Positions 13,635-31,864 of a stretch of 64,000 nt of DNA are shown piece by piece (position 1 is the stretch's first letter; each line of letters opens with the position of its first letter). Where the stretch lies: assembly GCA_964347475.1 (NCBI GenBank), contig CAYFYY010000004.1, forward strand, positions 15,997 to 79,996, given 5' to 3'. The notes under the pieces were generated by a model. That model saw only the letters and a list, made by a program, of their open reading frames with translations, was not told where the DNA came from and ran no database searches. Made by a program: the position numbers and the translations under genes. This DNA comes from an uncultured Flavobacteriales bacterium (GTDB lineage Bacteria; Pseudomonadota; Alphaproteobacteria; UBA8366; JADFVY01).

Positions 13635-14103
13635 CGCGTTGCACCAGGGCGATGGGTTCCCGTGCCGCGCCCGAAGGATCTGCATGTGGTCCACAGTGTC
13701 GCAGCAAGCGACGCATCGATGGCATCGCAGTTTCGAACGCCACTCCCTTGGTATTGTCGCGACCAAGTTTGGGGGCGCCGTGGGCCGACCCGGCTGATAC
13801 GCAATGCCGGCATGTTCGGTGGCCGGCCGCGAACGGCCTGTCGCCTGGCCCGTCGTCGGTCCCGCCGCATCGGAAGTCGCCCAGCTTCGGGTTGTGGAGC
13901 GCGCGTAATTCGCTGCGGCAAAACATACTCTCTTTACGCTTCCTTTACCCAACAGTGGAATGGTTGACGAGTGCCCCATGACTTCGTTCGCGCATTCGTA
14001 GAGTAGGATTACGCCACGGCCTGCGCATCGGGGACATCCATACTCTCGTATTTGTGCACCGATACGGGCCAGCTGCATCATCCAAGTCAGGCACGGCCGA
14101 TCC

Positions 14104-14496
14104 ATGAGCGACAAGACTTCTTCGATCCTGATCATAGATGACGACGAACTGCTGATCACGCTGCTGGAGCACAAGCTCGGTCAGCGTGGGCTGTCGGTGA
14201 CGAGCGCCAACGACGGACAGGACGGCCTCTTGGCGGCCATCGAAGAACAGCCCGATCTGGTGGTACTCGACGTCATGATGCCGACCATGGACGGCTTCGA
14301 AGTGCTGCGCCGCATGAAGGAACACGAGCGCACCCAGGATATTCCGGTCATCATGCTGAGCGCCAAGCGTCTCGAGGACGACGTGGTGAACGGACTGAAC
14401 CTCGGCGCCGCCGACTATCTCGTCAAGCCGTTCATGCCCGAGGAACTGCTGGTCAAGATCCAGAGGCTGCTGAGAGAAAAATGGATGCCCGCCTGA
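14104..14496 (+). CDS. single-domain response regulator (CheY-like receiver)
   Basis: 130 aa with receiver signatures ILIIDDDE, LVVLDVMMPTMDG, SAK and YLVKPF. There is no output domain. Its 3' end overlaps the next gene by 16 nt. Confidence 0.9.
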   Translation: MSDKTSSILIIDDDELLITLLEHKLGQRGLSVTSANDGQDGLLAAIEEQPDLVVLDVMMPTMDGFEVLRRMKEHERTQDIPVIMLSAKRLEDDVVNGLNLGAADYLVKPFMPEELLVKIQRLLREKWMPA

Positions 14497-15788: not shown

Positions 15789-15828
15789 CGGCAATGTGGC
15801 GACTGCGATTTGTCGAAAGGGTCCGGCA

Positions 15829-16950: not shown

Positions 16951-18401
16951 ATGTCGACGATCTCCTCGCCAACGATGCGCTGTCGTCGTATCTCGCGGCG
17001 ACGGCATGGTGGGCCAGTGTCATCATCCTTTGCACGATGTTGCTGCAGAATCTGCTCTACATGCTGCAGCTGTTGCTTGCATTCAAGGTCTTGCGGCGTT
17101 GGCGCTTCGTTCCCAATGCCGTTCGCGCGTGGCGCCAGCTGAGCGACACGTCGTTGCCGATTTCCCTGCTGGTCCCCGCCTACAACGAGGAAGCCACGGT
17201 CGTGGCCAACGTGCGATCGATGTTGGCACTGCATTATCCGCGGTTCGAAATCATTGTGATCAACGACGGCTCCAACGATGCCACACTGCAGACATTGATC
17301 GACAATTACGATTTGCGGCCCATCATCCGGGTTTACGAGGAAGAAGTGCCGCACCGCCCCATCAAGGGGCTCTACGGCTCATCGAGTTACCCCAACCTCA
17401 TCGTTGTGGACAAGGAGAACGGTGGCAAGGCCGACGCCCTCAACGCCGGCATCAACCTTTGCCGGCTGCCGATGTTCTGTGTCGTTGATGCCGACTCGAT
17501 CCTGGAGGCGGATTCGCTGCTGCGAGCGGTGCAGCCGTTCTCCGAGGATCCGGACCGCGTTATCGCGGTAGGGGGAACAATTCGACTTGCCAATGGCAGC
17601 GGCGTGCACGGCGGCCGCGTGGTTTCGGTGGGGCTCCCCACCAAGCTGCTGCCGTTGTTCCAGATCGTCGAATACCTCCGTGCGTTTCTCATGGCACGCT
17701 TGGCGTGGAGCGAATTCAATGCACTGATGCTGATTTCCGGCGCATTCGGAATCTTCAAGCGCAGTGCGGTAGTGGCCGCGGGCGGTTATTCGCACGGCAC
17801 CGTTGGCGAGGATATGGAGATCATCGTCAAGCTGCACCGCTACATGCGCGAAAAGGGCGAGGACTACGTCATTCGCTTCGTACCCGATCCAGTGTGCTGG
17901 ACGGAGGCGCCGGAGACCTTGCGCGTCCTGGGCCTCCAGCGCAAACGTTGGCAGCGCGGGGCGCTCGAAACGTTCTTCAAGCACATCCGCATGCTTTTCA
18001 ATCCCCGCTACGGCGTAGTCGGCATGGTAGGATTCCCGTACATCCTCTTGCTCGATGTGATCGGGCCTCCGGTCGAATTGCTCGGATATTTCCTGATTCC
18101 GGTGTTGTGGTATTTCGGCTTCCTCAGTCCGGAATTCTTCGCCGCGTTTCTGGCAATGACCTTCGCATGGGGTGTGACCATCAGCGTCGGCACGCTGGTG
18201 CTGGAAGAAATGGAGCTGAAACGTTTCCCGAAGACGCGACATCTGGTGTTGCTCGGATTCATCGCCGTTCTGGAAAATTTCGGATACCGCCAGATAAACA
18301 ATTTTTTCCGGGTCGCCGGGTACTGGCAGTACCTGTGCGGCAACAAGGAATGGGGCCGGATGACCCGTGCCGGCTTCCAGCAGGCGCACACGAAGGAATG
18401 A
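16947..18401 (+). CDS. processive family-2 glycosyltransferase (PgaC/IcaA/NfrB-like polysaccharide synthase)
   Basis: It has N-terminal TM segments and a GT-A core with INDGSNDAT and VVDADS. The processive-synthase motif QRKRW lies at 17937-17951, followed by a C-terminal TM bundle. The start ATG overlaps the HEAT gene stop (ATGA at 16947-16950). Confidence 0.88.
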   Translation: MNVDDLLANDALSSYLAATAWWASVIILCTMLLQNLLYMLQLLLAFKVLRRWRFVPNAVRAWRQLSDTSLPISLLVPAYNEEATVVANVRSMLALHYPRFEIIVINDGSNDATLQTLIDNYDLRPIIRVYEEEVPHRPIKGLYGSSSYPNLIVVDKENGGKADALNAGINLCRLPMFCVVDADSILEADSLLRAVQPFSEDPDRVIAVGGTIRLANGSGVHGGRVVSVGLPTKLLPLFQIVEYLRAFLMARLAWSEFNALMLISGAFGIFKRSAVVAAGGYSHGTVGEDMEIIVKLHRYMREKGEDYVIRFVPDPVCWTEAPETLRVLGLQRKRWQRGALETFFKHIRMLFNPRYGVVGMVGFPYILLLDVIGPPVELLGYFLIPVLWYFGFLSPEFFAAFLAMTFAWGVTISVGTLVLEEMELKRFPKTRHLVLLGFIAVLENFGYRQINNFFRVAGYWQYLCGNKEWGRMTRAGFQQAHTKE

Positions 18402-18608
18402 TGTGATGCCGCGCTACGTGCACTGTTGGCCAGATCCGGCTCGCAAGGCCGCGGGGTCGGCTCGGTGGCCGCGCGGGAAGGTCGGGCGCTCGCTTCGCGA
18501 CGTTGTCGATCGGACGCATCGGCCGGGCTCCGACCTGCCGATGCTGAGCATGAAAGCTGGCGCGTTGTGCCGCCTGGGACAGCTACGTGCGAAGGAGTGA
18601 CGGCGGCC

Positions 18609-21600
18609 GTGCGTATCGCAAAATCAATTAACAGCAAGTTCCTCGTGGTCACGTTGCCGTTTGTGTTCCTGTCCTCGATGGCGACGATATTCGCAGTTGG
18701 AACGTTGCAGGTCCGCTGGGAAGAGGGGCATCTGCGAGACCTGATGCGGAGTCATGCTCTGACCCACAGCGAGACCTTGGCCGTTCATATGCGCAGCAGC
18801 GATACCTACAACACCCGAATCATGCTGTCGTATGCTCTCTCCGATATCATCGCGGCGTCGCAGGTCAAGCGGGTTGTCCTACTGAATGCCGCCGACGAGG
18901 TTCTTTTTACCGCCGGACAGTTGCGCGAGAGCTCCGACCGGTACCTGTCCGTCGAGATACCTATTGTCACTGACGAGAATTCCGTCACTCGCGAACTTGG
19001 GCGGTTGCAGATTTTCGCAGATGGCGTCGACCCTTGGCCGATCCTCATCGAGAATACGGTCAACTATTCGATTCTGCTGGTCATCGTCATGGCTTCGATT
19101 ATCGCCAGCATTGCGCTGACCACCCATTACGTCGTCAACCGCCCGCTCGGGCAGTTCCTGGCAGCGGTTCGCACCTCGCAGCCTCTCGCCAAACGACGGT
19201 CGGCGGCCTTCAACCCGCCAGATGAATTGGGCGAGGTGATGGACGCCTACAACGAGATGATGCAACAGCGATTGACCGACGAAGAGACGCTGCAACAGAA
19301 CGAGCATCGCCTGCGTTCGATTCTCGAATCGAGCCCGGTCGGTATTTCCATCGTCACGCTGCATGGTACGCCCTTGTATGCGAACGCCCGCATCCTCCAG
19401 ATGCTTGGCCTTTCCCGCGATGAGTTCTTTCGCTCCAATGCAAGAGATTTCTATGTCAATCCCAGTGATCGGGATGAGATCGTCGAAATTCTGCAGACCG
19501 GCCAGGGCGTGGAAGATGTCGAGGTCCATCTTCGGCGCACAGGAAGCTCGCCCTTCTGGGCCCTGCTCTCGTTCATGCCAACGGATCTGTACGAGGGCGA
19601 GTGCTTTCTCGTCTGGCTCTACGACATCAACGAACGGCGCCTCATCGAGGATGAACTGCATGCGAGCCGGGAGCTTCTGGAAGATCAGGCGCACGAGCTT
19701 CGCGATCTCGCCGATACCTTTGCCGTCCAGAAATCCCGTGCCGAACAAGCAACCGCGGCGAAGAGCGCATTCCTCGCCAACATGAGCCACGAGATCCGTA
19801 CGCCTATGAATGCCATTCTTGGCTTGATCGACCTGACAATGCAGACGGAACTCACCGCCGAACAGGCGAACAATCTGACCAAGACCCGGACCGCGGCCCG
19901 TTCGCTCCTGGAAGTCATCAACAACATTCTCGATATCTCGAAAATCGAGACAGGGAAATTGGAGCTCGAATCTGCGCCATTCGACCTCAACGATACGCTG
20001 AACGGCGTTTCGACCATGCTGGCAGCGGAGGCCGAGCGCAAGAAGCTTGAACTGTTCTTCGTTTCGAAGCCGGACGTTCCGAGATTCCTGGTTGGCGATA
20101 CGCTACATCTCGGACAGGTTCTTCTGAATCTCACCAACAATGCGGTCAAGTTCACCGACGTCGGCAGCATCGTGCTGCGTACCTGGGTCGAGGAGCTGCA
20201 GACCGACTCGGTTACGCTGGGCTTTTCCGTGACGGACACGGGAATCGGCATCAGCGAGGACGTGCAGCCGGGCCTGTTCAAACCTTTCGTTCAGGCCGAC
20301 GACTCGACGACGCGGAAATACGGCGGCAGCGGTCTGGGGCTCGTCATTTCACGGCGCATCGTCGAGCTCATGGGCGGAACGATCGTTCTCGAGAGTCGAC
20401 CGGCTAAGGGGAGCACTTTCAGCTTTACCGCCCAGTTCGGCCTGCAGGAATTGGATTGGGCACCGCCCCCGCTGCCGGCTCGGGCGCCAAGCGTCCTTTT
20501 GATCGCAAGCAGCCGTGAGACCCGCCGAATTCTTCCGGATGCGCTCGCAGCCTGGGGTATGACCGTTCATTCGGCGAATTCGACGACGACGGCCCTGGCA
20601 GAGATCGACCGGCTGGCGCAGATCGCTGAACCGTGCATCGACGTTTTGTTGTTCGACTGCAAGGTTCAGGGTACGAATTGCGTCGAAGCGGCGCGCAAGA
20701 TTACGGATGAACGCAAGCTCGGGTCGGTGGCGAAGGTCTTCCTCCTGCATAGCCAGCACCACGAGGAATTGCGAACGAGCGCCGAGGATTTGGAGCTGTG
20801 TGAATTTGTCGCCAAGCCCGTGCACGTGCAGGTTCTGGTTGACAGCATCCGCGGCGTGGCGCGACAGGATGACGCCGAGGGAAAGCTGGCGACCGAGCAC
20901 GTAGCTCCAGCCATGAACCAGTTGCGGCCAGAGCTGCAGGGTGCCCGGATTCTTCTTGTCGAGGACAACGAAATCAATCAGGAGGTCAGCCAGGCTGTCC
21001 TCAAGCGGGTGGGGCTGCTCGTCGAGACCGCGAACAACGGCAAGGAGGCAGTCGACGCGGTCATTGCCGACGCAACCCGGTTCGACGCGGTATTGATGGA
21101 TGTGCAGATGCCGGAGATGGATGGGCTGCAGGCCACCCGGGCAATCCGGGAACATCCGGGCTTCGCCGAGTTGCCGATCATCGCAATGACCGCACACGCG
21201 TTCGCCGAGCAGCGGCGCGATTGCCTCGATGCGGGCATGAACGACCACATTCCGAAGCCGGTCGAACCGGCCCGCCTGGTCGCGGCGCTCAACAAATGGA
21301 TCAAGCGCGGTCGCAGGTCATCGGAAGAACCGGCGATCGAAGCACCGGCGGATGCGGCCGAGGATGGCGCCTCCGTTTCCGACGAGCTTCCCGGTATCGA
21401 TGTTGCCGGTGCCCTCGAGCGGCTCGATGTCACGAGGGAATTTTTCGACATGCTGCTCAAGAAATTCCATAGCAGGCACGAGGGCGTGGGCGCCGAGATC
21501 CAGGATGCGTTCGCCCGGTCCGACCTGCGGCGTGTCGAGGAAATCGCGCACCTTTTGAAGGGGATGGCGGGCAACCTTTCGGCCGATGATCTGTCGGCCG

Positions 21601-21728
21601 CGGCGGCACGCGTTGAGGCGGCGGCCCGCGACGCGGACGCGGAGAATCTGCCGGAACTTTTGGCGCGCCTGCAAACCGCTCTCGCCCCCGTCCTCGAGTC
21701 GGCTTCACAAGCCGGTGGCGACTCCTAA
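18609..21728 (+). CDS. hybrid sensor histidine kinase (TM-sensor-TM-HAMP-PAS-HisKA-HATPase-degenerate REC-REC-HPt)
   Basis: It has the H-box FLANMSHEIRTPMNAILG, ATPase G-boxes (DTGIGI, GGSGLGL), a receiver (ILLVEDNEINQE...LMDVQMPEMDG...PKP) and an HPt (HLLKGMAGNL). The start is placed at the GTG at 18609, 11 nt after GAAGGAG. The ORF is open from 18426. Confidence 0.9.
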   Translation: MRIAKSINSKFLVVTLPFVFLSSMATIFAVGTLQVRWEEGHLRDLMRSHALTHSETLAVHMRSSDTYNTRIMLSYALSDIIAASQVKRVVLLNAADEVLFTAGQLRESSDRYLSVEIPIVTDENSVTRELGRLQIFADGVDPWPILIENTVNYSILLVIVMASIIASIALTTHYVVNRPLGQFLAAVRTSQPLAKRRSAAFNPPDELGEVMDAYNEMMQQRLTDEETLQQNEHRLRSILESSPVGISIVTLHGTPLYANARILQMLGLSRDEFFRSNARDFYVNPSDRDEIVEILQTGQGVEDVEVHLRRTGSSPFWALLSFMPTDLYEGECFLVWLYDINERRLIEDELHASRELLEDQAHELRDLADTFAVQKSRAEQATAAKSAFLANMSHEIRTPMNAILGLIDLTMQTELTAEQANNLTKTRTAARSLLEVINNILDISKIETGKLELESAPFDLNDTLNGVSTMLAAEAERKKLELFFVSKPDVPRFLVGDTLHLGQVLLNLTNNAVKFTDVGSIVLRTWVEELQTDSVTLGFSVTDTGIGISEDVQPGLFKPFVQADDSTTRKYGGSGLGLVISRRIVELMGGTIVLESRPAKGSTFSFTAQFGLQELDWAPPPLPARAPSVLLIASSRETRRILPDALAAWGMTVHSANSTTTALAEIDRLAQIAEPCIDVLLFDCKVQGTNCVEAARKITDERKLGSVAKVFLLHSQHHEELRTSAEDLELCEFVAKPVHVQVLVDSIRGVARQDDAEGKLATEHVAPAMNQLRPELQGARILLVEDNEINQEVSQAVLKRVGLLVETANNGKEAVDAVIADATRFDAVLMDVQMPEMDGLQATRAIREHPGFAELPIIAMTAHAFAEQRRDCLDAGMNDHIPKPVEPARLVAALNKWIKRGRRSSEEPAIEAPADAAEDGASVSDELPGIDVAGALERLDVTREFFDMLLKKFHSRHEGVGAEIQDAFARSDLRRVEEIAHLLKGMAGNLSADDLSAAAARVEAAARDADAENLPELLARLQTALAPVLESASQAGGDS

Positions 21729-21899
21729 ACATTCGGTCATCAACCGTGCGAGACCTGCACCGCCTACGGCGACGTCGTGCCTGGCATCGTATCAGGGCAC
21801 GCCACGTCCTGTCTTGACATCGACCGGTCAGACGCTGGCAACATGCCAGCCTGTCATTCCCGGCGTGGCGTGGCGCCGGCAATATAGGAGGATCAACGC

Positions 21900-22145
21900 A
21901 TGCGCGCACTGATAGCAGCGGCAATCATGATGACGGGAGCGGCGCTGGCGACAAGTCCCGCCGGGGCGCAACAACCCGTGAAGGGCCAGGATGCGGTCGC
22001 CATTGTGCAGGGCGGCCAGATTCGGGCGTCGTCCAGCGAGGGGTTTCAGGGATTCCTGCTGTTGATCGACTATCGGGGCGTGAACTATACCTGCGCGGTG
22101 ACCGCGGGCGGACAGGTACAGACCTGTTATCCGCTCTACTGGTAG
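21900..22145 (+). CDS. small secreted protein (signal peptide, two Cys)
   Basis: 81 aa with a strong RBS (AGGAGG 8 nt upstream of the ATG). The signal peptide is MRALIAAAIMMTGAALATSPAGA, and the mature ~58 aa contain the spaced Cys pair C-x13-C. Confidence 0.6.
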   Translation: MRALIAAAIMMTGAALATSPAGAQQPVKGQDAVAIVQGGQIRASSSEGFQGFLLLIDYRGVNYTCAVTAGGQVQTCYPLYW

Positions 22146-22229
22146 AAACACAACGGGGATGCGCGGGAGCCACGATGCGCACCGCTGATCGCGGACGGCG
22201 ATCGAGTCCCCCGCCCTGCTGGAGATATC

Positions 22230-22874
22230 GTGCGGAAGCTGAGGTTTGCACTCTGGTTTGCCGTTGCGACGACGATTGCGTTGTTTGCGGCGCTTCAGCT
22301 CATTAACAGGTTGACGCCTCCGCCGGTCGGAATGACGGAGCAGGCGCGCACGGCTGAAGAGATCGCCCGCGAGATCGTCACCGGTGAATTCTCGCTTGTC
22401 GACGGGAACGGCGAAACGGTTTCGGATACCGATTTCCGCGGCTCGTGGCTGCTGGTCTTTTTCGGGTACACCCACTGCCCGGATGTCTGCCCGACCACCC
22501 TGGGTTCCATCGCACTGGTCATGGATGAGCTTGGCAGCGAGGCCGAGTCGTTGCAGCCGCTCTTCATAACCGTTGATCCCGCCCGCGACTCCGCCGATGT
22601 CGTACGACAGTACGCTGCAGCGTTCCATCCGAAAATCATCGGACTGACGGGCAGCGAGCGACAGGTGGCAGCAGCGGCCAGATCGCATCGGGCCTATTAT
22701 GCAAGGGTCGCAGCGTCGAACGGCACGACGACGGACACCGACGATTACGCCATGGATCACTCCGCACATCTCTACCTGATGGATCCGGACGGCGTCTATG
22801 CCACGGCCTTTTCCCAGACGACCACCGTCGACGCGATGGTACGGATTATCCGCGAGCGAATGGCCGGACATTAG
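22230..22874 (+). CDS. SCO1/SenC family copper chaperone / thioredoxin-fold protein
   Basis: It has an N-terminal TM anchor, the motif FFGYTHCPDVCP (CxxxC) and the conserved distal His (DHSAHLYLMD). The start codon is GTG, preceded by GGAG. Confidence 0.88.
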   Translation: MRKLRFALWFAVATTIALFAALQLINRLTPPPVGMTEQARTAEEIAREIVTGEFSLVDGNGETVSDTDFRGSWLLVFFGYTHCPDVCPTTLGSIALVMDELGSEAESLQPLFITVDPARDSADVVRQYAAAFHPKIIGLTGSERQVAAAARSHRAYYARVAASNGTTTDTDDYAMDHSAHLYLMDPDGVYATAFSQTTTVDAMVRIIRERMAGH

Positions 22875-23099
22875 AGGGAACGGCCGCCTTCCCGGCAATT
22901 CGGTCTCCGCCAGCGTCGAGTCGCGCGCCCGACAGGATTCCGGCCGAAATCCGCAATAATTTCCATGTTCTGCGTTGCGGCGGATCGACGCATGAACCTT
23001 TCCGCGGCAGTCTCGCGCGCGGCTGGCTGAACCCGGCGCATACCGCTGTTTCGGGGCGACAGGCGATCGATCGGCCTGGTCCGCGGGTGGAGGCACGGA

Positions 23100-23549
23100 A
23101 CTGAAAATTATTAATTTTTTACAATAAATTACTCTAAATTTCATTCAATCCGGTCCGGCAGCCGCGTTAACCATTTCCGAGAACCTGTGCCAAGATTTTC
23201 CCTTTTTAATATTCCCATCATATCGTAATATCGTATTGTAGCAATGCTGCGCCCGAATCAGAGACTAACCTCTGAACTAGAGTTCCAAAGATGAGCTGAA
23301 GTCTGTGATTTATTGGAGATGCAAAATGAAAGTCACATGATAACAAAACCCATCTCTACTGAAATGCTGAAAAAAGACTTTACAGTTTTTCTTGCGCGGG
23401 GGTAGGATTTCGAAAATCCTTTGGTACGCAGGGGGTTAAACTCGAATTTCAGTGGAGGTGAAATCAAGATTACTTTCCTTGTCCGACAATGGGGCTGCCG
23501 GCGGGGAAAGTAAACCGACACCGACAGGGATTATTGAAGGCAGGGCGAC
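23100..23549. promoter_or_regulatory. AT-rich non-coding leader upstream of the PilZ-methyltransferase gene
   Basis: Hand count gives 16 G+C in 23101-23160 and 22 G+C in 23281-23340, against about 40-43 per 60 nt in flanking genes. It contains the tandem octamer ATATCGTA ATATCGTA (~23219-23234) and the perfect hairpin AGGATTT-CGA-AAATCCT (23404-23420). Confidence 0.5.
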
Positions 23550-25001
23550 ATGCATTCGTACGAACGCCTATCCGGTGCGTCCGGACGGCGCGTGTTTTAT
23601 CGCGCAGAACGATTCAAGGCGCGGGATCTGTTTCCGCTGGCGACGGCCAAGGTCCAAATCGACGATACCCTTCTGGCGCTGGAAGACCTAAGCATGACCG
23701 GTTTCAGTGCGGTTGCTCCCGGTGCTGCGCTCTGGGCTCCGCGCATTGGCGAGGAGTTTGCCATCCGCCTCCTGCTTGACGATATGGTGCTGCACGAGGG
23801 GCGTGCGAAAGTATGTCGAATTGGACGGCAGAAATGCGGCGTGAGTGTCGGCCTCGGGCTGACGTCGGACTACCTTGACATCGCCGACGTCATAAGCAAA
23901 CGCAACCGCCATCTCCTCGATCTCGAAATCGGCCACGGCCTGGTGACCGATGCGGGTCTGGTCGATCCCGAATACAGAAAGCTCAGTGCCGACGTCGTAC
24001 ACCTCTTGCGGAACTTCCGCGCGATCCTCGAGCGACACGAGTTGCGCGGCAACGGTTATTCCTCCCCCCCGCCGCACAGTCCGATCGACGAAGCGCTGCA
24101 GCTTTGTGAGGAACGGATCATTCCTTCTTGGCGCCAGCACTGGGAGCACGCCAACAGTCTCGTCGAACCCGTGATGTCCGATCCGGACCGCTTGCGGGCG
24201 ACGAAACGATTCACCGAGCTCGTCGTGACGCCGGAACTCATGGACGGGCCCATCTGGCGCCGCAGTTACGAGAAGCCACTCGGTTACCCTGGCGATTACC
24301 AGGTGATGAATTATGTCTATGCCTGGCGTCGCGAAGGTGATTCCGCGACCGGCAAGCTGCTTCATCGCGCGGGACTCGAGGTTGCCGAGTGTATCGGCAC
24401 GCGCATGCGGATGATCGAACAGATGATCGCCCACGAGATCGCGGCCCGACCGGCCGGCGAGGTCACGCATATTGCCAGCATTGGAAGCGGCCCGGCGAAG
24501 GAAGTGTCGAATTACCTTCAGTCCGACGAAATTCCGGGTGCCGTATCGTTTACTCTCGTCGACCAGGAACATGAGGCGCTCGAGCAGGCGTACAGCGATA
24601 TCTACCCGCAGACGACGCGGCACGGGGGCCGGGCCGCCGTGCAGTGCCTGAACATCTCGTTCGTCGACCTGGCAAAGAAGAACCGGGTGTTCCCCGGCGT
24701 CGGGCCGCAGGACTTCATCTACAGCGTGGGCATCGTAGACTATCTGGCCGATCATAGGGCACGCAGCCTGGTCGCGTCTCTGTACGACCGACTCGCGCCT
24801 GGCGGGCGGCTGGTCATAGGAAACATGCGCAGGACCAGTCTCAGCAATCTCTGGCCGATGGAGTTCATCTGCGACTGGAGCGTCTATTATCGCGACGAGG
24901 CCGAGATGTGGGCCATGGTAGAGGGATTGTCGGCAAAGTCGCGCAAACTAGAGACCGACCCGACCGGGCGCGTGTACATGCTGACTCTGCGCAAACCCTG
25001 A
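23550..25001 (+). CDS. PilZ domain / class I SAM-dependent methyltransferase fusion protein
   Basis: The N-terminus carries both canonical PilZ c-di-GMP motifs: RRVFYR (RRxxxR, 23586-23603) and DLSMTG (DxSxxG, 23685-23702). The C-terminal half has Rossmann MTase motifs (IASIGSGPAKE, LVDQE, FIYSVGIVDYL, LAPGGRLVIGN). Confidence 0.75.
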   Translation: MHSYERLSGASGRRVFYRAERFKARDLFPLATAKVQIDDTLLALEDLSMTGFSAVAPGAALWAPRIGEEFAIRLLLDDMVLHEGRAKVCRIGRQKCGVSVGLGLTSDYLDIADVISKRNRHLLDLEIGHGLVTDAGLVDPEYRKLSADVVHLLRNFRAILERHELRGNGYSSPPPHSPIDEALQLCEERIIPSWRQHWEHANSLVEPVMSDPDRLRATKRFTELVVTPELMDGPIWRRSYEKPLGYPGDYQVMNYVYAWRREGDSATGKLLHRAGLEVAECIGTRMRMIEQMIAHEIAARPAGEVTHIASIGSGPAKEVSNYLQSDEIPGAVSFTLVDQEHEALEQAYSDIYPQTTRHGGRAAVQCLNISFVDLAKKNRVFPGVGPQDFIYSVGIVDYLADHRARSLVASLYDRLAPGGRLVIGNMRRTSLSNLWPMEFICDWSVYYRDEAEMWAMVEGLSAKSRKLETDPTGRVYMLTLRKP

Positions 25002-25059
25002 GCATCCCCTCGCGCGGCAGATACCGCATCGAGCCAGATCGCAAGGGCAGGTCGGCGCT

Positions 25060-26472
25060 TCAGCCGGGCAACTGAAGGGACTGCTGGGTGTCGAAAATCG
25101 TGCGCTCTGGCGGCAGGCGCATCGTCACGACGGTGCCCTGCCCCGGCTTGCTGTCGATGGTCAGTTGCCCGCCGTGCCATTCGATGATCTTTTGCACGAT
25201 GGGAAGACCCAATCCGGTGCCACCGCGTGCGCTGGTGTATGGGTGCGCGGCCCGATAGAATGGTTGCGTTGCGTTCCCCAAATCTTCCGCCGCCATGCCG
25301 ATCCCGCTGTCGGTCACGCTCAATACGCATGCGCCGGCCTCGTCCATCCATAGGGCGACGGAAACCTCGCCGCCCTTTTCGGTGAATTTGACACCGTTCG
25401 AAACCAAATTGATGACCACCTGCCGAAGCCGTCCGGGGTCGGCCATCACGACCACGCTGGGCTGCGGCAGCGAAGCCGAAATCTTGAGGCCATGCGAGAT
25501 ATCCGGGACCCGGAACATCCGCAGGCACTCATCGACGATCAGGCACATGTCGACCTCGCATTCGGCGAAGGACAGCTTTCCCGCCTCTGCCGTCGCCAGA
25601 TCGAGCATATCTCCGATGATGCTCAGGAGGTGGCTGCCGCTGGAATAGATGTCTTCAGCGTAGTTCTTGTAACGGGGCGTGCCCAGCGGGCCCAGGATCT
25701 CTTCCTTGACGATCTCGGAGAATCCGATGATCGCATTGAGCGGCGTACGCAGTTCGTGGCTCATGCTGGCCAGGAATTCCGTCTTTGCCTTGTTTGCCGC
25801 GTCCGCCCTGCGGCGCAGCCGCTCGGAGGCCGCCTTCTCGTAAGTCAACAAGCGAGTCTGTAGGTGATTCAGGCGCAGGTACAGTTCCTGCACGTAGTTG
25901 ACAACGCCCCCGACTGCGATCGCCATTGCCAGGAAGAAATTGTTGCTCAGCAACACCTCGTATGGAACGGGGTTCAGGACAAACGCCGACAACTGATAGA
26001 TGGCGAACAGGATCAGGGAGACGATCAGCGAATACACGTGATGGAGACGCAGCACGCTGGCGCAGTAGATCACCACCATGATCAGGCCCGCATAGTACCA
26101 GTAACTTGCGGGGGGTTCACCGAACACCGTCATGGCAATGATGCCTATGCCCGCCGCAAACATTGCAAGCGACAGTCCTGCCTGAGCGCAGCGCACGAAG
26201 TTCCGGTGATAGGTCAGGGCAAATACCCCGAAGACGATCGGGAACACAAAGCCGAACCGGACAGCCCAGAACTGACTGACCACCTCGGGCATGAGCAGTG
26301 CGTCAAGCACGCCGAAAAGCCCGTACAGAAACGCGCCGGCCAGCAGGCCGAGCCGTATGACCGGACGCGAATCGAGCATGTGTCTGCACAGAAACCGCCG
26401 TTCCGCGATTCTGTTCTTGAACCGCAGGCTGAACATGTTCAGCTCTGAGAGGTTCGCCTTCCAGACGCTCAT
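25060..26472 (-). CDS. membrane sensor histidine kinase (about 6-TM N-terminal domain, HisKA-HATPase)
   Basis: The first ~200 aa are hydrophobic multi-TM. These are followed by the H-box FLASMSHELRTPLNAIIGFSE and then N/G1/G2 boxes (NLVSNGVKFT, DSGIGM, GGTGLGLP). No receiver domain is present. Confidence 0.88.
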   Translation of the reverse strand: MSVWKANLSELNMFSLRFKNRIAERRFLCRHMLDSRPVIRLGLLAGAFLYGLFGVLDALLMPEVVSQFWAVRFGFVFPIVFGVFALTYHRNFVRCAQAGLSLAMFAAGIGIIAMTVFGEPPASYWYYAGLIMVVIYCASVLRLHHVYSLIVSLILFAIYQLSAFVLNPVPYEVLLSNNFFLAMAIAVGGVVNYVQELYLRLNHLQTRLLTYEKAASERLRRRADAANKAKTEFLASMSHELRTPLNAIIGFSEIVKEEILGPLGTPRYKNYAEDIYSSGSHLLSIIGDMLDLATAEAGKLSFAECEVDMCLIVDECLRMFRVPDISHGLKISASLPQPSVVVMADPGRLRQVVINLVSNGVKFTEKGGEVSVALWMDEAGACVLSVTDSGIGMAAEDLGNATQPFYRAAHPYTSARGGTGLGLPIVQKIIEWHGGQLTIDSKPGQGTVVTMRLPPERTIFDTQQSLQLPG

Positions 26473-26705
26473 AGCGTCACCAACAGTGCTCCTCGCCGGA
26501 CCGGGCCTTTTCGAACACTTTACACAACTGTCGCCGAATATAGTTAACCAATCCTTAGGACCGAGAATCCGTCCTTAACGATTTGGCGGCCACGTCATGC
26601 TTTCGCAGGCTGCTCAAGTATCTGTATCCTATTGAATTCCTGAGTATATGGCGTCGCCGCAATGCTCAGCCGCCAGTCCCGTGTTCGTGTGCCGACGGGC
26701 GCCAA

Positions 26706-28385
26706 TCAGGCGCTGCGGACCTCACCCAGGAATCTCTCGACCTCGCGGCGCAGTCCCTCAGCCTGCTGCGCCATCTGCTGCGACGCACTCAGTACCTGTC
26801 CCGCTGCCAGGCCGGTTTCACCAACTGCCTTGGAGACGCTTTCGATATTCTGGTTCACGTCCTGGGTGCCGCGCGCCGCCTGCTGGACGTTGCGGGCGAT
26901 TTCCTTTGTCGAGATCCCTTGCTGTTCGACCGCGGACGAAATGGTTGTCGCGATTTCGTTGACCTCGCCGATGATCGCGCGAATCTTCCCGATCGCGCCG
27001 ACCGCGTCGGTGGTTTCCTCCTGCACGGAAGCGATCTGCTGCGAAATTTCCTCGGTTGCGCGTGCGGTCTGGTTGGCAAGGTTCTTGACCTCCTGGGCGA
27101 CGACGGCGAAGCCCTTGCCGGCCTCGCCGGCGCGGGCCGCCTCAATGGTCGCATTGAGGGCAAGAAGGTTTGTCTGTCCGGCTATGTCACTGATCAGTTT
27201 CACGACGTCGCCGATCTTCTCCGCTGCTTCAGCCAGCCCCTGAACCGTCGTGTTGGTCGCCTCGGCTTCGGCAACCGCGTTCTGCGCGATCTTCGCGGAC
27301 TGCATGACCTGGCGGCCAATCTCCGCGATCGAAGCAGACAACTCCTCCGCCGTTGCGGCTACCGTCTGTACATTTGCGGCAGCCTCCTCGGACGCAGTGG
27401 CCACGTTGGTCGACTGGCGGTTTGTCTGTTCCGCCGTTGCCGACATTTGCTGCGCCGTCACCTGCATCTGCGTCGCGGCGGAGGACACGCCTTCCACGAC
27501 CTTCTTGACCTGCACTTCGAAACGGTCCGCCATCTCGCGAACGGTCTGGCGCCGCTCCTCGGACGCGCGCTGCTGGGAGGCCGCCTGGACCTCCTCAAGC
27601 CGCCGCTTATCCACCGCGTTGTCCTTGAATATCTGCACCGCGCGTGCCATGTCGGCGACCTCGTCGCTCCCGTCCTGCCCAGACACGGCGACATCGGTAT
27701 TGCCGGCGGCGATTTCCGTCATGACCTGCGTAAGGCGCGAAATCGGGCGCGTGATGGTGCCGCCGACGAAGTACAAGACAAGGACCAGCGCTCCGGCGAA
27801 GACTCCCCCCATAACCAGGGCGATCTGCGACGAATCGGCAACCTCGTCGTTCAGCGCCTCGCTCGAGCGGGCCACGTCCAGCACCACCAGATTCTGGAGT
27901 TCCGCCAGGAGATCAACAAGACCTTCGCCGTATTCGTCGATATCGTCGTCGAACCGGGCAAAATCCTGACCGCCCCCGCTTTCGATCGCTTGCACGAGTT
28001 CGAACCGGATCACGCGGTCCGCAATATTGGTCAGCTCGGCAACCTCCGCCGCAAGTTCCGGCTTGTTTGCCCGTTCGGCAACGGCATCGACGATGTGCTG
28101 GTTATCCCGCAACTCACTGATGCCCCGATCCATCTTTTCGAGGCGTTCCTCGTAGACGTAGCCTTCGTCCGCATCGACGATCGAATCGGCCGCGGCAAGC
28201 ACCAGCTCGAGGGTGGATACGCGGAGGTCGCCCAGCGTCTGAGCTTCCTGCAGCATCAGCTGGTTGGCATTGGTTACGCGTTTAACGGCGGTGCTCGCGT
28301 CCCAGGCAACGAAAATCAGTGCAAACAGAACGACGACTGCAACCGTCCCCATGAAAACCAGTTTGCGTCTGATGGTCCATTTCAT
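26706..28385 (-). CDS. methyl-accepting chemotaxis protein
   Basis: 559 aa: TM, ligand-binding region, TM, HAMP, and a highly conserved signalling hairpin ([37 protein letters not shown]). Confidence 0.92.
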
Positions 28386-28570
28386 TGCTCGAGCTCCGGC
28401 CGGAACGCCAACGGGAGCCCCTTAGACGGGCTCACTCGATTGTCGATGCGCGCGGGACCCCGCCCCACCATACCGGTGGCGCGGCCGGTCCTGTGACGGC
28501 GATGATTGGCCTGCGGGGCTTAAGATCGGGTTAACCGGCGTCTCGCGAGCTCGATGCCGTTGCCCGGCCG

Positions 28571-29782
28571 TTAGCCGACGAGAGCGACCGCGCCGGACGC
28601 GGCGAGGGCCTCGATCTCGTCGCGGCCAAAACCGTGTTCCGACAGCACCTCGGCCGTGTGTTGGCCATATACCGGCGCACCGCGGACAACGCCGCCGGGG
28701 GTTCCGGAAAACTTGACCGGAAGGCCGAGGGTCTTGACCGGCCCAAGGCGCGCATGTTCGGCTTCCGTTACCATCTCCCGCGCCAAAACCTGCGGGTCGC
28801 GATGCATGGCGCCGATATCGAGAACGGGCCCCGCTGGCAGCCCCGCCGCCTCGAATCGGGCCAGCCATTCCTCGGTGGTTCGGTCGGCCAGGTAGCCCTC
28901 CAGCGCAGCAGCCAGCTCGTCGAGATGGGAGATGCGGTCGACGTTCTCCGTGAATCGCTCGTCCTCCGCCAGATCTTGCGCATCGAGAGCATCGAGAAGG
29001 CGCAACCAATTCGCCTGGTTGGCGGCCCCGACATTAACCCAGCCGTCCTTCGTCCGCAGCGCCTGGTAGGGCGCATTCAACGGATGTGCCGATCCCATCG
29101 GCCCCGGCGATTCACCGGTGGCGAAGGCGATGGCCGATTGCCAGTAGGTATGGGTGATCGCCGCTTCGAACAACGAGGTATCGACACGCTGCCCCTCGCC
29201 GGTTCGCAGCGCACTCACATAGGCGGAGACCACACCCATCGCGCCGAGAATGCCGGCAGTGATGTCGCTCACAGGGGCCCCGACCTTGACTGGCGGTCGG
29301 CCAGGGCCCTCGCCGGTGATGCTCATCAGGCCCGACATGCCCTGTGCGATCAGATCGAAGCCGCCACGGTCGGCATAGGGGCCGGTGCGCCCGAAACCGG
29401 AGATCTCGCAGTAAATAAGCCGAGGGTTGTCCTTCTTCAGCTCGTCGTATCCGAGCCCCAGCCGCTCCATGGTGCCGCGCCGGTAATTCTCGATGACGAC
29501 GTCGGCATCGTGCAGCAACCTGCGCAGCACCACCTTGCCTCGCGCGTCCTTCAGGTTGACGGCAACGCCCCGCTTGTTACGGTTCATCATCATGAAGGCC
29601 GCGGATTCGCCGTCGACCTCCGGCGGCACCGAGCGGCGTGTGTCGTCGCCGCCGGGCATCTTCTCCACCTTGATGACGTCCGCTCCCATGTCGGCGAGCA
29701 TCAGGCCGCAGACCGGGCCGGCCATGATGTGCGCCAGTTCGATGACCTTCATACCCTGCAAAGGACCGCGGCGTTCGGTCAT
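28571..29782 (-). CDS. CaiB/BaiF family (class III) CoA-transferase
   Basis: From the ATG at 29782 the sequence reads MTERRGPLQGMKVIELAHIMAGPVCGLMLADMGADVIKVE, the typical family III CoA-transferase N-terminus. The longer ORF start at 29863 would overlap the upstream gene. Confidence 0.9.
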   Translation of the reverse strand: MTERRGPLQGMKVIELAHIMAGPVCGLMLADMGADVIKVEKMPGGDDTRRSVPPEVDGESAAFMMMNRNKRGVAVNLKDARGKVVLRRLLHDADVVIENYRRGTMERLGLGYDELKKDNPRLIYCEISGFGRTGPYADRGGFDLIAQGMSGLMSITGEGPGRPPVKVGAPVSDITAGILGAMGVVSAYVSALRTGEGQRVDTSLFEAAITHTYWQSAIAFATGESPGPMGSAHPLNAPYQALRTKDGWVNVGAANQANWLRLLDALDAQDLAEDERFTENVDRISHLDELAAALEGYLADRTTEEWLARFEAAGLPAGPVLDIGAMHRDPQVLAREMVTEAEHARLGPVKTLGLPVKFSGTPGGVVRGAPVYGQHTAEVLSEHGFGRDEIEALAASGAVALVG

Positions 29783-29784
29783 GC

Positions 29785-30567
29785 TCAGCGCCCCTTGAAC
29801 GCCGGCTTGATCTTGTCCAGGAACGACTGGTAGCCGATCCGGAAATCCTCTGTGCCATAGCACGCATAGCCTTCATCGCGTTCTTCTGCGGTGAGCGGCG
29901 TGGAATCTTCCAGGCGTTCGGCGAACTTCTTGTGCCAGCGAGCAACCAGTGGGGCGCCTTCGGCGATCCGCTGCGCCGCCGCGTAGGCCTCCTCTTCGAC
30001 CTTGTCGTCCGGCACGACCCGCGTGACGATGCCCTTTTCCTTTGCTTCCGCCGCGCCGAAGACCCGGCCCTCCAGGAGAATCTCGAGGGCAACCGAGCGG
30101 CCTACAAGGCGGATCAGCGCAGCAATTTCCGGATGGGCCATGACCAGCCCGAGTTGCTTGATCGGCACGCCGAAGCGGCTTGATTCGCCGCAAATGCGCA
30201 GGTCGCACAAACCAGCGATTTCCATGCCCCCGCCGACGCAGATTCCCTCGATGAGGGCCACCGTCGGGTGGCGGCATCCGCCAAGCGCTCTGAGCGTACG
30301 GTGGAGGATGTCCCCATAGGCCTTGGCCTGTTCCGGGTTCGAGCGATCGGTCGCGAATTCTGAGATGTCGTTGCCCGGCGAAAACGCCTTGCCGCCGGCG
30401 CCGCGCAGCACGATACAGCGGAGGTCATCATCTGCAGCCAACTCATCCATGACTTTGCCAAGGCGCAGCCACATTGGCTTCGTCATGGCATTCAGCTTTT
30501 CCGGGCGGTTCAGCGTGACCGTCGCGATATGGCCATCGCGGCGGACCAGGATGGTCTCATTCAACAT
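29785..30567 (-). CDS. enoyl-CoA hydratase/isomerase (crotonase) family protein
   Basis: 260 aa with crotonase-fold signatures (VTLNRPEKLNAM, LRGAGGKAFSPGNDI, GICVGGGMEIA). Confidence 0.9.
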   Translation of the reverse strand: MLNETILVRRDGHIATVTLNRPEKLNAMTKPMWLRLGKVMDELAADDDLRCIVLRGAGGKAFSPGNDISEFATDRSNPEQAKAYGDILHRTLRALGGCRHPTVALIEGICVGGGMEIAGLCDLRICGESSRFGVPIKQLGLVMAHPEIAALIRLVGRSVALEILLEGRVFGAAEAKEKGIVTRVVPDDKVEEEAYAAAQRIAEGAPLVARWHKKFAERLEDSTPLTAEERDEGYACYGTEDFRIGYQSFLDKIKPAFKGR

Positions 30568-30580
30568 CGTCGCGTCTTTC

Positions 30581-31864
30581 CTAACGGTAAAACAATTCTA
30601 CCAGAGCCATCGGCACGATCGGAACATAGGTGACCAGCAACAGCACCGCAGCGATGACGCCGATGAAGTATATGTTGACCTTGCTGACGTCCCAGATATT
30701 CGCCTTGGCGACCGCGCAGGCGGTGATGAGCACCGACGCCACCGGCGGTGTCTGTTGCCCGATTCCGAGGTTGAGCGTGACGACAAGCCCGAAATGAACG
30801 GGATCGATGCCGGCAGCATAGACCAGGGGCATCACGATCGGCACGACCAGAATGATCGCCGCCGCCGAATGCAGGAACAATCCGATGACCAGGAAGAAAG
30901 CGTTGAGAAGCGCCAGCACCGCATAGCGATTGTCGGTCCAACTCAGGATCGTGGCTGCCAGCTTCTGCGGTACTTGTTGTTCGGTCAGATACACGCCGAC
31001 GAGCGCCGAAGCCGCAACGAGCAGCATGACCACTGCCGTCTGGACACCGCCCTCGATGATGGCGTCGTGCAGATGTCGCCAGTCGAGTTCGCGATAGATC
31101 AGTCCGCCGATGACCAGGGCGGCGACAACCGCAAGTCCGGCTCCTTCCGTCGCCGTCACGAAACCACCGAAGATTCCCCCAAGGATTATGAATGGCAGCA
31201 GGAATGCCCAGGCTGCATCCTTGAATGTCTGCCAGAGCCGCTTGAGTTGAAAGATCTCCTCGACGGGATAATTGTGGCGGCGCGCGAACCAGTATGAAAC
31301 GGCCATCATACCGACTCCACCGATGATCCCCGGGATGATTCCGGCAACAAAGAGCTGGACCACGGAGCTATCCGACATCACTGCATAAAGGATCATCGGG
31401 ATCGACGGAGGAATAATCACCGCGATCGTTGCCGAAGACGACGTCACGGCCGCCGCGAAGGGTGTCGGATAGCCTTTCCGCTTCATGGCAGGGATCAGGA
31501 TCGAGCCCAGCGCCGCGACATCGGCGACCGCGGATCCAGAGATCTCTGCGAAAAACATCGAAGCGGCGATGTTTACCATCGCCAGCCCGCCGCGGACGAA
31601 TCCCAGCAGCGCAGAAGCAAACGCGATCAGCCGCCGGGAGATCCCCGACGAATTCATGATTGCGCCGGCAAGAATGAACATCGGGATCGCAAGGAGGGGG
31701 AACTTGGTTGCGCCGTCATACATGACAAGCGCAACGTTCGGCAGCAGATCGGGGCCTCCGGTGGCGAGCATGGCGACGACGGCGACAGTCGCTAGCGCAA
31801 TGGCGATTGGCACGTTGATCAGGATCAGGGCGATAAGCCCCACAAGCATCAGCAACAACGTCAC
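30581..31864 (-). CDS. dctM: TRAP transporter large permease subunit
   Basis: 427-aa polytopic DctM-type protein. It overlaps dctQ by 4 nt. Confidence 0.93.
   Translation of the reverse strand: MTLLLMLVGLIALILINVPIAIALATVAVVAMLATGGPDLLPNVALVMYDGATKFPLLAIPMFILAGAIMNSSGISRRLIAFASALLGFVRGGLAMVNIAASMFFAEISGSAVADVAALGSILIPAMKRKGYPTPFAAAVTSSSATIAVIIPPSIPMILYAVMSDSSVVQLFVAGIIPGIIGGVGMMAVSYWFARRHNYPVEEIFQLKRLWQTFKDAAWAFLLPFIILGGIFGGFVTATEGAGLAVVAALVIGGLIYRELDWRHLHDAIIEGGVQTAVVMLLVAASALVGVYLTEQQVPQKLAATILSWTDNRYAVLALLNAFFLVIGLFLHSAAAIILVVPIVMPLVYAAGIDPVHFGLVVTLNLGIGQQTPPVASVLITACAVAKANIWDVSKVNIYFIGVIAAVLLLVTYVPIVPMALVELFYR

Follow-up and report, generated by a model that had tools for sequence, protein, structure and literature searches.

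A PilZ-methyltransferase protein related to PhcB

The gene at 23550..25001 on the + strand of the window, by which we mean the whole stretch of 64,000 nucleotides that was analysed, is predicted from its sequence and from AF2 models to code for a three-part enzyme with a PilZ domain at the N-terminus, a helical cap, and a class I SAM-methyltransferase core. We observed these domain identities, the homology of the protein to PhcB and of the neighboring kinase to PhcS, and the conserved pairing of the two genes, and from these we infer the signal-synthase function, its chemistry, c-di-GMP binding, and gating. The two genes would thus be a Phc-type signal synthase/sensor pair in which the synthase carries a c-di-GMP input domain that gates its methyl-ester output. 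We put the probability of this reading at about 0.45, that is, just short of even.

The ORF starts with ATG and spans 483 aa, and the choice of the start codon is backed by full-length homologs of ~480 aa that can be aligned from residue 1. The full-length AF2 model has a pLDDT of 90 and a pTM of 0.77. The motifs that the original prediction had read in the protein are all in the translation of this ORF, namely, RRVFYR at residues 13-18, DLSMTG at residues 46-51, motif I IGSGPA, which had been placed at ~24480, at residues 311-316 (nt 24480-24497), the acidic LVDQE at residues 336-340, and LAPGGRLVIGN at residues 415-425. The PilZ and methyltransferase motifs are not there by chance because the alignments show that they are retained across close and distant homologs.

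The PilZ domain and its c-di-GMP motifs

The PilZ domain is the usual c-di-GMP receptor fold and consists of a six-stranded beta-barrel and a long C-terminal alpha-helix, both of which are in the AF2 models (pLDDT 86-90). In the model of residues 1-135 (pLDDT 86) the barrel strands lie between residues 33 and 104 and the long helix follows at 111-128/132, and the domain was assigned to residues ~12-128 (23583..23933, +). The pLDDT is low at residues 1-20, which agrees with an Arg loop that is flexible in PilZ domains of the apo form. When this model was compared with the PDB by Foldseek, the PilZ domains of Alg44, MapZ, BcsA, VCA0042, PlzA, MotI, YcgR, PA0012, and MrkH were on top and the matches were almost exclusively to c-di-GMP-bound PilZ domains. 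The window protein alone matched neither PilZ nor any named family in Pfam and NCBIfam, and Pfam PilZ (PF07238) was not matched even at E<=10; family-level and structural evidence was therefore needed. Pfam PilZ was matched at E<0.01 by 37 of 90 homologs of the window protein, and five of the six homologs tested (P0015, P0079, P0085, P0016, and P0069, with 24-31 bits) passed its gathering threshold of 22.5 bits. Sequence searches of the PDB with the protein or with family profiles gave nothing significant, only weak in-register matches to the YcgR PilZ domain (E 0.4-1.3) and a spurious MarR-type match. The modelled barrel, the Foldseek matches, and the Pfam matches of the homologs identify the N-terminal domain as PilZ, as had been predicted.

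The second c-di-GMP motif of this domain, [D/N]hSxxG as defined in bioRxiv 10.1101/814665, is DLSMTG at residues 46-51 (23685..23702, +). D/N46, S48, and G51 are retained in 90 of 90 close homologs and the motif is present in 98 of 130 distant representatives. The first motif, RxxxR, is expected in the N-terminal loop at ~20-30 residues before the second and is less clear-cut. The Arg-rich stretch R13 R14 VFY R18 AE R21 FKA R25 (23586..23624, +) contains two candidates, R14-R18 and R21-R25, which are 28 and 21 residues before D46. Column counts showed that the invariant arginines of the family are R18 and R21, which are spaced RxxR. Position 14 is Arg in 46/90 close and 22/130 (17%) distant members, position 25 is Arg in 53/90 close and 49/130 distant members, and a strict RxxxR is absent from about half of the 130 distant representatives. 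Of the complete PilZ signature that had been claimed, DLSMTG thus stands, and the RxxxR part has two candidate sites in the window protein but only R18 and R21 as arginines that are invariant in the family. Because the strict RxxxR is not conserved, some members of the PilZ-methyltransferase family may bind c-di-GMP differently or not at all.

The methyltransferase module and its homology to PhcB

Class I SAM-methyltransferases are recognized by a Rossmann fold, a Gly-rich motif I, and an acidic residue that ends beta-2, and all three were found in residues 305-483 (24462..24998, +), where strands and helices alternate in the AF2 model. The landmarks of this core are motif I (IGSGPA), the acidic D338, D388, D397-Y398, GG418-419, and N425. 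In the family alignment IGSGPA and D338 are invariant, and little or no variation is seen at G314, E318, D397-Y398, G419, and N425. Foldseek matched the core to class I methyltransferases at E 1e-11 to 1e-9, and Pfam Methyltransf_12 was matched by 68 of 90 homologs, the window protein itself scoring 17.9 bits and thus falling short of the cut-off of 30. The structural neighbors are small-molecule and natural-product methyltransferases, phospholipid and cyclopropane-fatty-acid methyltransferases included, which speaks against a housekeeping methyltransferase and is in keeping with the original prediction. The same module also occurs as stand-alone proteins of ~230-280 aa on Rhizobium plasmids and within an Enterobacter type I PKS.

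The region between the PilZ domain and the core (residues ~134-300; 23949..24449, +) had been described as a helical linker of ~150 aa. It is indeed helical, with helices at 140-298 in the AF2 model, but it is not a linker because the family-invariant Y142, R154, K242-P-L-G-Y-P-G-D249 (24273..24296, +), and R285 are common to PhcB, as are P228, R238, and G263. Residues ~140-300 are therefore a helical cap and a conserved part of the enzyme module.

PhcB (KEGG K19620) makes the methyl 3-hydroxymyristate/palmitate quorum signals in Ralstonia and Cupriavidus, and the biochemistry of PhcB itself is only partly defined. The suspected similarity to PhcB was confirmed by hhalign, in which the family profile was aligned with that of 34 PhcB orthologs from Betaproteobacteria (99.93%, E 7e-36, residues 62-475 against 45-455), and by BLASTP, in which the protein matched the PhcB-like product of an operon of the phcBSRQ type in Ralstonia pickettii (28% identity, E 8e-30). 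Between residues 9 and 472 there are 37 columns that are at least 90% conserved with the identical residue in both families; 35 of these are within 142-472 and the exceptions are G9 and R21. Many homologs carry the KEGG phcB name in the JGI annotation. A genome scan gave at least 586 loci, and the 80 best of these included Cupriavidus, Paraburkholderia, Ralstonia pickettii, and Ralstonia sp., with PhcB of R. solanacearum itself not among them. The comparison family is genuine PhcB because its genes belong to operons of the phcBSRQ type in Paraburkholderia and Ralstonia pickettii (L004, L065). The Cupriavidus and Paraburkholderia proteins have been stated to be PhcB homologs with R22 conserved, and the Phc proteins of C. 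necator are 56-75% identical to those of R. solanacearum (PMC6989110, PMC2842291). From these alignments we conclude that the segment of residues ~140-480 is a homolog of the PhcB proteins found in Cupriavidus, Paraburkholderia, and Ralstonia. The substrate may be other than that of PhcB because the identity is only ~28%.

The two proteins are of similar length (~463-483 aa), both have an N-terminal beta-rich domain, a helical cap, and a C-terminal class I methyltransferase, both are paired with a PhcS-type membrane kinase, and their common columns include KPLGY.GD, G.A.E, D338, DY, GG, and N425. They differ in that the window family is alphaproteobacterial whereas PhcB is from Burkholderiales, and in that the N-terminal domain of the window protein has the PilZ c-di-GMP motifs whereas that of PhcB lacks both. 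The PhcB-type N-terminal domain, with its invariant R22 region, was not found in the window family. An adaptive R22C mutation reportedly maps to this domain in Ralstonia PhcB. That the N-terminal domain of PhcB is itself a PilZ domain could not be established. None of the 34 PhcB orthologs (0/34) matched Pfam PilZ, a PDB sequence search with this domain gave no match, and hhalign of the N-terminal regions alone gave a probability of 1.3% (E 0.04), which rose with a broader profile to 65% (E 6e-5) over the last three barrel strands only.

The convergent PhcS-like kinase and other neighbors

The neighboring gene at 25060..26472 on the - strand codes for a protein of 470 aa that by Pfam and hhalign is a PhcS-like membrane histidine kinase, with a multi-TM sensor followed by HisKA (229-298) and HATPase_c (345-456). 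Its membrane sensor domain (residues ~37-205; 25858..26364, -) has about 5-6 hydrophobic segments and is of the MASE8/PhcS type. Comparison with PhcS-like kinases by hhalign gave 99.9% (E 7e-32), and the sensor alone aligned with the PhcS sensor region over 144 columns (95.5%, E 1.5e-8) while the reversed control gave E 0.29. MASE8 was called in the orthologous kinases of six loci (L003, L086, L088, L089, L092, and L093), and the window kinase is 39% identical to the ortholog in L003. The kinase is like PhcS in its order of domains, its length (~445-500 aa), and its alignable sensor region, with Pfam MASE8 matches, weak or clear, in both groups. It differs from PhcS in that the identity is 26%, it is convergent whereas PhcS is downstream in the same operon, and its cognate response regulator is not adjacent.

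The stop codons of the two convergent genes are separated by a spacer of 58 nt (25002..25059), and in the homolog loci the spacer is -4 to +60 nt. No terminator-like site was found in this spacer in a promoter/terminator scan, the counts of which were no clearer than in shuffles. A synthase with an adjacent, convergent PhcS-like kinase was found in 12 of 12 loci, that is, in the window and 11 homolog loci. Across these loci the synthases are 43-78% identical and the other neighbors differ. No response-regulator gene, phcR and phcQ included, is next to the pair in the loci examined. PhcB is the first gene of the co-directional phcBSRQ operon, and in the window and the homolog loci the kinase is convergent. 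The link to a multi-TM sensor kinase that the original prediction drew from the Phc operon thus holds, with the two genes arranged as a convergent pair rather than as a phcBSRQ operon.

Among the other neighbors, MMPL transporters are <=5 kb away in five loci and FadL-type channels are 3' of the kinase in two, which together with the small-molecule methyltransferases among the structural neighbors lends weak support to a hydrophobic product. An MCP gene at 26706-28385 has a counterpart only in the closest relative, L001, and is absent from the other ten loci. No GGDEF or HD-GYP motif was found in the window ORFs of at least 150 aa and no diguanylate cyclase/phosphodiesterase motif in the sampled neighborhoods. 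The multi-PAS genes upstream in L086, L090, and L092, which were considered as diguanylate cyclases, are hybrid histidine kinases. When 21700-26700 was scanned with Rfam, neither a c-di-GMP riboswitch nor any other RNA was matched at E<=1.

Proposed mechanism and alternative explanations

We propose that the methyltransferase would methylate a small hydrophobic carboxylic acid, probably derived from a fatty acid, to give a diffusible methyl ester that would be sensed by the neighboring PhcS-like kinase. The predicted binding of c-di-GMP to the PilZ domain, which is joined to the cap by the PilZ C-terminal helix, would change the activity of the synthase in either direction, and the output of signal would hence follow the c-di-GMP state of the cell. 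The pair could also be of the Phc type with a PilZ domain that does not bind c-di-GMP and serves instead as a structural, protein-interaction, or other-ligand domain, as the motif-less N-terminal domain of PhcB may do. The RxxR spacing of the conserved R18 and R21, the variation at R14 and R25, and the lack of a strict RxxxR in about half of the distant members favor this, as do the 32 of 130 distant members without [DN]hSxxG and the weak alignment of the PhcB domain, which has neither motif, with the second half of the barrel. We nevertheless consider it unlikely because both motifs are kept in the window protein and its closest relatives, [DN]hSxxG being in 90/90 and hard to explain without a ligand, and because it is PilZ domains with bound c-di-GMP that the structure matches best.

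Less probable still is a methyltransferase with a lipid or metabolite substrate that has no part in signaling and belongs, for example, to detoxification, to secondary metabolism, or to the modification of membrane lipids, with a kinase that only regulates the pathway or answers the same stress. The natural-product, phospholipid, and cyclopropane-fatty-acid methyltransferases among the structural neighbors, the occurrence of the module alone in Rhizobium and inside a PKS in Enterobacter, and the nearby MMPL lipid transporters fit this explanation. However, the nearest homolog that has been characterized makes a signal, the gene is strictly paired in all 12 loci with a kinase that has a PhcS-like membrane sensor, which is the signature of a synthase/receptor pair, and no further biosynthetic genes are conserved beside the pair. 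We also considered a CheR-like protein methyltransferase, in effect MapZ and CheR1 fused into one protein, which would modify the kinase or the nearby chemoreceptor in response to c-di-GMP. In its favor are the matches to Pfam CheR, which are weak (the window protein at E 0.036, 12/90 homologs at E<0.01), the MCP neighbor, one JGI homolog named 'chemotaxis methyl-accepting protein methylase', and the presence of MapZ-CheR1 among the top PilZ fold matches. It was rejected as highly improbable. The CheR match of the window protein reaches 13.9 bits where 27 are required and is confined to the generic SAM-binding part, the same weak match is found in PhcB orthologs (27/34 at E<=1, best E 0.0011), the MCP neighbor is not conserved beyond L001, and the protein lacks the CheR N-terminal domain (no CheR_N) and has small-molecule methyltransferases as its fold neighbors. 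We therefore favor the c-di-GMP-gated Phc-type pair, against which speak the missing Pfam PilZ match of the window protein itself, the strict RxxxR that is not conserved, the lack of diguanylate cyclase and phosphodiesterase motifs in the window and the sampled neighborhoods, the convergent arrangement with no adjacent response regulator, and the low identity to PhcB.

Precedents and significance

PilZ fusions of the BcsA (cellulose synthase) and Alg44 type exert allosteric c-di-GMP control over the adjoining catalytic module. Like them, the window protein has a canonical PilZ fold with [D/N]hSxxG beside a catalytic module, and both are top fold matches; unlike theirs, which are polysaccharide synthesis and secretion, its output is a methyltransferase, and its PilZ domain is N-terminal whereas that of BcsA is C-terminal. 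The other precedent is MapZ (PA4608) of Pseudomonas aeruginosa, in which PilZ also goes with a class I methyltransferase, CheR1. The MapZ-CheR1 complex (5xly, 5y4r) is among the best N-terminal fold matches, 5xly being the second in the Foldseek list. MapZ bound to c-di-GMP regulates CheR1 in trans, and the contact is mediated by the PilZ C-terminal helix (bioRxiv 10.1101/814665). MapZ, however, acts in trans on a chemotaxis protein methyltransferase, whereas the PilZ domain of the window protein would act in cis on a PhcB-type small-molecule methyltransferase, and the Pfam CheR match of the window protein is below threshold.

No PilZ-methyltransferase fusion is in the PilZ survey (bioRxiv 10.1101/814665) or the searched literature, and the literature searched on PhcB with PilZ, c-di-GMP, or Alphaproteobacteria has no description of a PilZ-PhcB fusion. 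The same literature has no experiments on any member of the PilZ-PhcB-like family. This uncharacterized family is widespread in Alphaproteobacteria, and the 150 best matches fall into at least 130 full-length clusters at 50% identity. A bolder and rather doubtful extension is that the family is a widespread alphaproteobacterial Phc-type quorum module with a synthase switched directly by c-di-GMP through PilZ. Allosteric control of signal synthesis itself by a second messenger would then be seen for the first time, and as a corollary the N-terminal domain of PhcB would be a degenerate PilZ barrel from such an ancestor.

c-di-GMP governs the motile/sessile decision of the single cell and quorum sensing that of the population, and the two cross-talk, usually by way of transcription or of receptors that make or break down c-di-GMP. 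If our proposal is true, the second messenger would act directly on the signal synthase, a coupling that is simple and testable. It would also add a methyltransferase to the known enzyme-class outputs of PilZ and offer an idea of what the uncharacterized N-terminal domain of PhcB may do and where it may have come from. Phc-type signaling, which to our knowledge has so far been studied only in Ralstonia and Cupriavidus, would be extended to a large alphaproteobacterial family.

PilZ-methyltransferase gene and its N-terminal domain

The PilZ-methyltransferase gene (23550..25001, plus strand) begins with ATG and codes for a protein of 483 aa, the start being backed by several hundred homologs of ~480 aa whose alignments begin at residue 1. 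The motifs named in the original prediction were all correctly placed, namely, RRVFYR (residues 13-18), DLSMTG (46-51), IGSGPA (311-316, nt 24480), LVDQE (336-340), and LAPGGRLVIGN (415-425). Two minus-strand ORFs, 23688..24755 (355 aa) across this gene and 21828-23144 (438 aa) across the SCO1/SenC gene, appear to be GC-rich shadow frames. No minus-strand genes are called at the matching positions in L001, the locus of the closest relative, and 23688..24755 is without the homolog support that 23550..25001 has.

Searches with the window protein alone gave no PilZ match in Pfam and no family in NCBIfam. Among 90 aligned homologs (43-96% identity), PF07238 was found at E<0.01 in 37 (best E 3e-7), and five of the six homologs tested one by one passed the PilZ gathering score of 22.5 bits. 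In the AlphaFold2 model of residues 1-135 (pLDDT 86) the Arg-rich loop at the N-terminus is disordered, and a beta-barrel (strands 33-104) is followed by a long helix (111-132), which is the canonical PilZ layout (bioRxiv 10.1101/814665). In a Foldseek search of the PDB with these residues the top ranks were, in order, Alg44-PilZ with c-di-GMP, MapZ bound to CheR1, a PA2989-type PilZ, and BcsA, followed by VCA0042, PlzA, MotI, YcgR, PA0012, MrkH, and PP4397; unrelated folds did not come before rank ~27.

It had been claimed that the PilZ signature is complete, and this stands for DLSMTG, the second binding motif, which as [D/N]hSxxG is found in 90/90 close homologs and 98/130 distant representatives. 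The arginine motif fits the signature less neatly than had been supposed. There are two RxxxR candidates, R14-R18 and R21-R25, and the family-conserved arginines are R18 and R21 (90/90 close homologs; both kept in 113/130 of the distant set). Position 14 is Arg in 46/90 close and 22/130 distant proteins, and position 25 in 53/90 close and 49/130 distant ones. A strict RxxxR upstream of the second motif is absent from about half of the distant set. From the fold matches, the conservation of the second motif, and the untidy arginine motif, we consider the PilZ fold and [D/N]hSxxG secure and regard c-di-GMP binding by this protein as a likely prediction.

Helical cap and methyltransferase core

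In the full-length model (pLDDT 90, pTM 0.77) helices from ~134 to 300 precede a Rossmann core at 305 to 483. The helical region of ~150 aa, originally described as a linker, is not one: it holds the family-invariant residues Y142, R154, P228, R238, K242-P-L-G-Y-P-G-D249, G263, and R285 and is kept in shorter relatives without the N-terminal domain. One of these, encoded on a Pseudanabaena plasmid, has 280 aa and is 38% identical across residues 183-483. Foldseek with the full-length model returned class I small-molecule and natural-product methyltransferases (E 1e-11 to 1e-9), including 3ocj, SgvM, CurJ C-MT, plant and bacterial O-MTs, NNMT, phospholipid N-MT, and cyclopropane-fatty-acid synthase. 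No housekeeping RNA or ubiquinone enzyme was among these neighbours.

At this site (L005, 5085-7704, on Pseudanabaena sp. PCC 7367 plasmid pPSE7367.01) the methyltransferase gene is convergent to a histidine kinase and response regulator, and a Tn3 transposase and a recombinase adjoin; the cyanobacterium thus has a copy of the synthase and sensor module that may be mobile. On Enterobacter ludwigii plasmids (NZ_CP134637.1, 46701-47507, and NZ_CP134634.1) a type I polyketide synthase contains a methyltransferase domain with 23% identity to residues 198-476, and therefore the PhcB-type cap and core module also exists as a polyketide synthase tailoring domain.

Relationship to PhcB

Many homologs carry the KEGG-derived JGI name 'extracellular factor (EF) 3-hydroxypalmitic acid methyl ester biosynthesis protein'. 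A tblastn match from a Paraburkholderia graminis plasmid is part of an operon of a methyltransferase (468 aa), a kinase, and two response regulators, and belongs to a family of ~463-aa proteins of Paraburkholderia, Cupriavidus, Massilia, and Janthinobacterium with members in at least 586 species genomes. In Ralstonia pickettii RAL3 the family member is first in a co-directional four-gene cluster (463/453/377/333 aa). The ~463-aa Cupriavidus and Paraburkholderia proteins have been described as PhcB homologs (PMC6989110, PMC2842291), and the Phc proteins of C. necator share 56-75% identity with their strain GMI1000 counterparts (PMC2842291).

The suggested similarity to PhcB was upheld. The profile of the window family matched that of 34 betaproteobacterial PhcB orthologs with 99.93% probability (E 7e-36, residues 62-475), and BLASTP aligned the window protein with the R. 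pickettii PhcB-like protein at 28% identity (E 8e-30). The same residue is at least 90% conserved in both families in 37 columns, 35 of them within Y142 to T472, the exceptions being G9 and R21. Judged from these alignments, the enzyme module is truly, if distantly, homologous to PhcB.

The N-terminal domains of the two proteins differ. None of the 34 PhcB orthologs has a Pfam PilZ match, a PDB search with the PhcB domain gave no match, and the isolated N-terminal profiles aligned weakly (E 0.04). A broader profile comparison by hhalign (65%, E 6e-5) covered the last strands of the PilZ barrel and placed PhcB 'NLQRKS' under 'DhSxxG' (residues 1-100 of the PhcB proteins of P. graminis, L004 4455-5861, and R. 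pickettii, L065 6001-7392). The PhcB domain may be a degenerate PilZ-like barrel. Its R22, invariant across the ortholog alignment, is the site of a published adaptive R22C mutation.

A convergent PhcS-like kinase

Convergent to the synthase gene is a kinase gene (25060..26472) whose 470-aa product has a multi-TM N-terminal region, HisKA, and HATPase_c. The same type of kinase (445-543 aa) is convergent after the synthase in 11/11 homolog loci (43-78% synthase identity), sampled from Rhodospirillales, Aliidongia, Rhodobiaceae, Parvibaculaceae, and several metagenomic Alphaproteobacteria among others, with stop-to-stop distances of -4 to +60 nt, while the other neighbours vary. These kinases are mutually orthologous (39% identity, full length). 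They match the PhcS-like kinases that follow PhcB at 99.9% (E 7e-32) overall and at 95.5% (E 1.5e-8) in the membrane sensor region alone, where the reversed control gave E 0.29. Several of them have a Pfam MASE8 domain, for which the Paraburkholderia PhcS-like kinase gives a weak match. Hence the parallel drawn earlier to the multi-TM sensor kinase of the PhcB operon is borne out, with a PhcS-related kinase adjoining the window gene and all 11 homologous synthases. No response regulator is adjacent to the pair in the window or the sampled loci, and GGDEF, EAL, and HD-GYP genes are absent from its vicinity.

Large multi-PAS hybrid histidine kinases (PAS x4-6, HisKA, HATPase, REC) lie directly upstream of the PilZ-methyltransferase on the same strand in three homolog loci (L086 214-4857, L090 1021-4893, L092 1384-4851), and a related one (18426-21728) is two genes upstream in the window. 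They may share a phosphorelay with the PhcS-like kinase, which has no adjacent response regulator.

MMPL/RND (sterol-sensing-type) transporters occur within 5 kb of the pair in 5/11 homolog loci (L003 5621-7873, L088 2614-4842, L086 10084-11455, L090 10052-11449, L092 10122-11461), accompanied in three of them by a DUF1329/TP_0789-like gene and an unannotated gene of ~405 aa. FadL-type (Toluene_X) outer-membrane channels come next after the kinase in two loci (L089 8263-9536, L093 7940-9232). Both kinds of neighbour would fit a hydrophobic product and hint, weakly, that such a molecule is exported or taken up.

Locus L001, which is 78% identical, has no counterpart of the ~8 kb at 13945-21728 between its DUF924 and SCO1 genes. 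This segment encodes a TPR and YaiO-like outer-membrane beta-barrel protein (14481-15788), a HEAT-repeat protein (15796-16950), a family-2 glycosyltransferase with a chitin-synthase-like region (16803-18401), and the hybrid kinase at 18426-21728 (PAS-HisKA-HATPase-REC-Hpt), and it resembles an island for making and secreting exopolysaccharide that includes a regulator of its own.

Interpretation

The best-supported reading of these comparisons is that the pair encodes a putative Phc-type synthase and its sensor, the synthase having a PilZ input domain. It is possible that the PilZ domain no longer binds c-di-GMP, a reading that the variable R14 favours and the conserved second motif opposes, and it is also possible that the enzyme is a small-molecule methyltransferase without a signal role. 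A CheR-like protein methyltransferase is disfavoured. The Pfam match to CheR is sub-threshold, generic, and common to PhcB, and the MCP neighbour is not conserved: after the kinase the window (26706-31864) and L001 (11238-17077) have genes for an MCP, a family III CoA-transferase, an enoyl-CoA hydratase, and a TRAP transporter, none of which follow it in the more distant loci, and they are lineage-specific neighbours outside the module.

The window protein is best described as a PhcB-type enzyme with a PilZ domain. Its family is large: 5591 representatives (at 50% identity) match at E<=1e-3, of which 1247 reach E<=1e-30, and 130 of the 150 best, window protein counted, have the N-terminal domain. 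Databases label them only as 'class I SAM-dependent methyltransferase', 'PilZ domain-containing protein', or with the KEGG phcB name, and our literature search for PilZ-methyltransferase fusions or PhcB homologs with PilZ found no paper.

For a Phc-type synthase with a PilZ input domain, the model suggests how the two parts might be coupled. The terminal PilZ helix runs straight into the helical cap that PhcB-type enzymes have over the active site, and MapZ control of CheR1 goes through the same PilZ helix (bioRxiv 10.1101/814665). Given this arrangement and precedent, it is plausible that c-di-GMP would act on the synthase by repositioning its cap.
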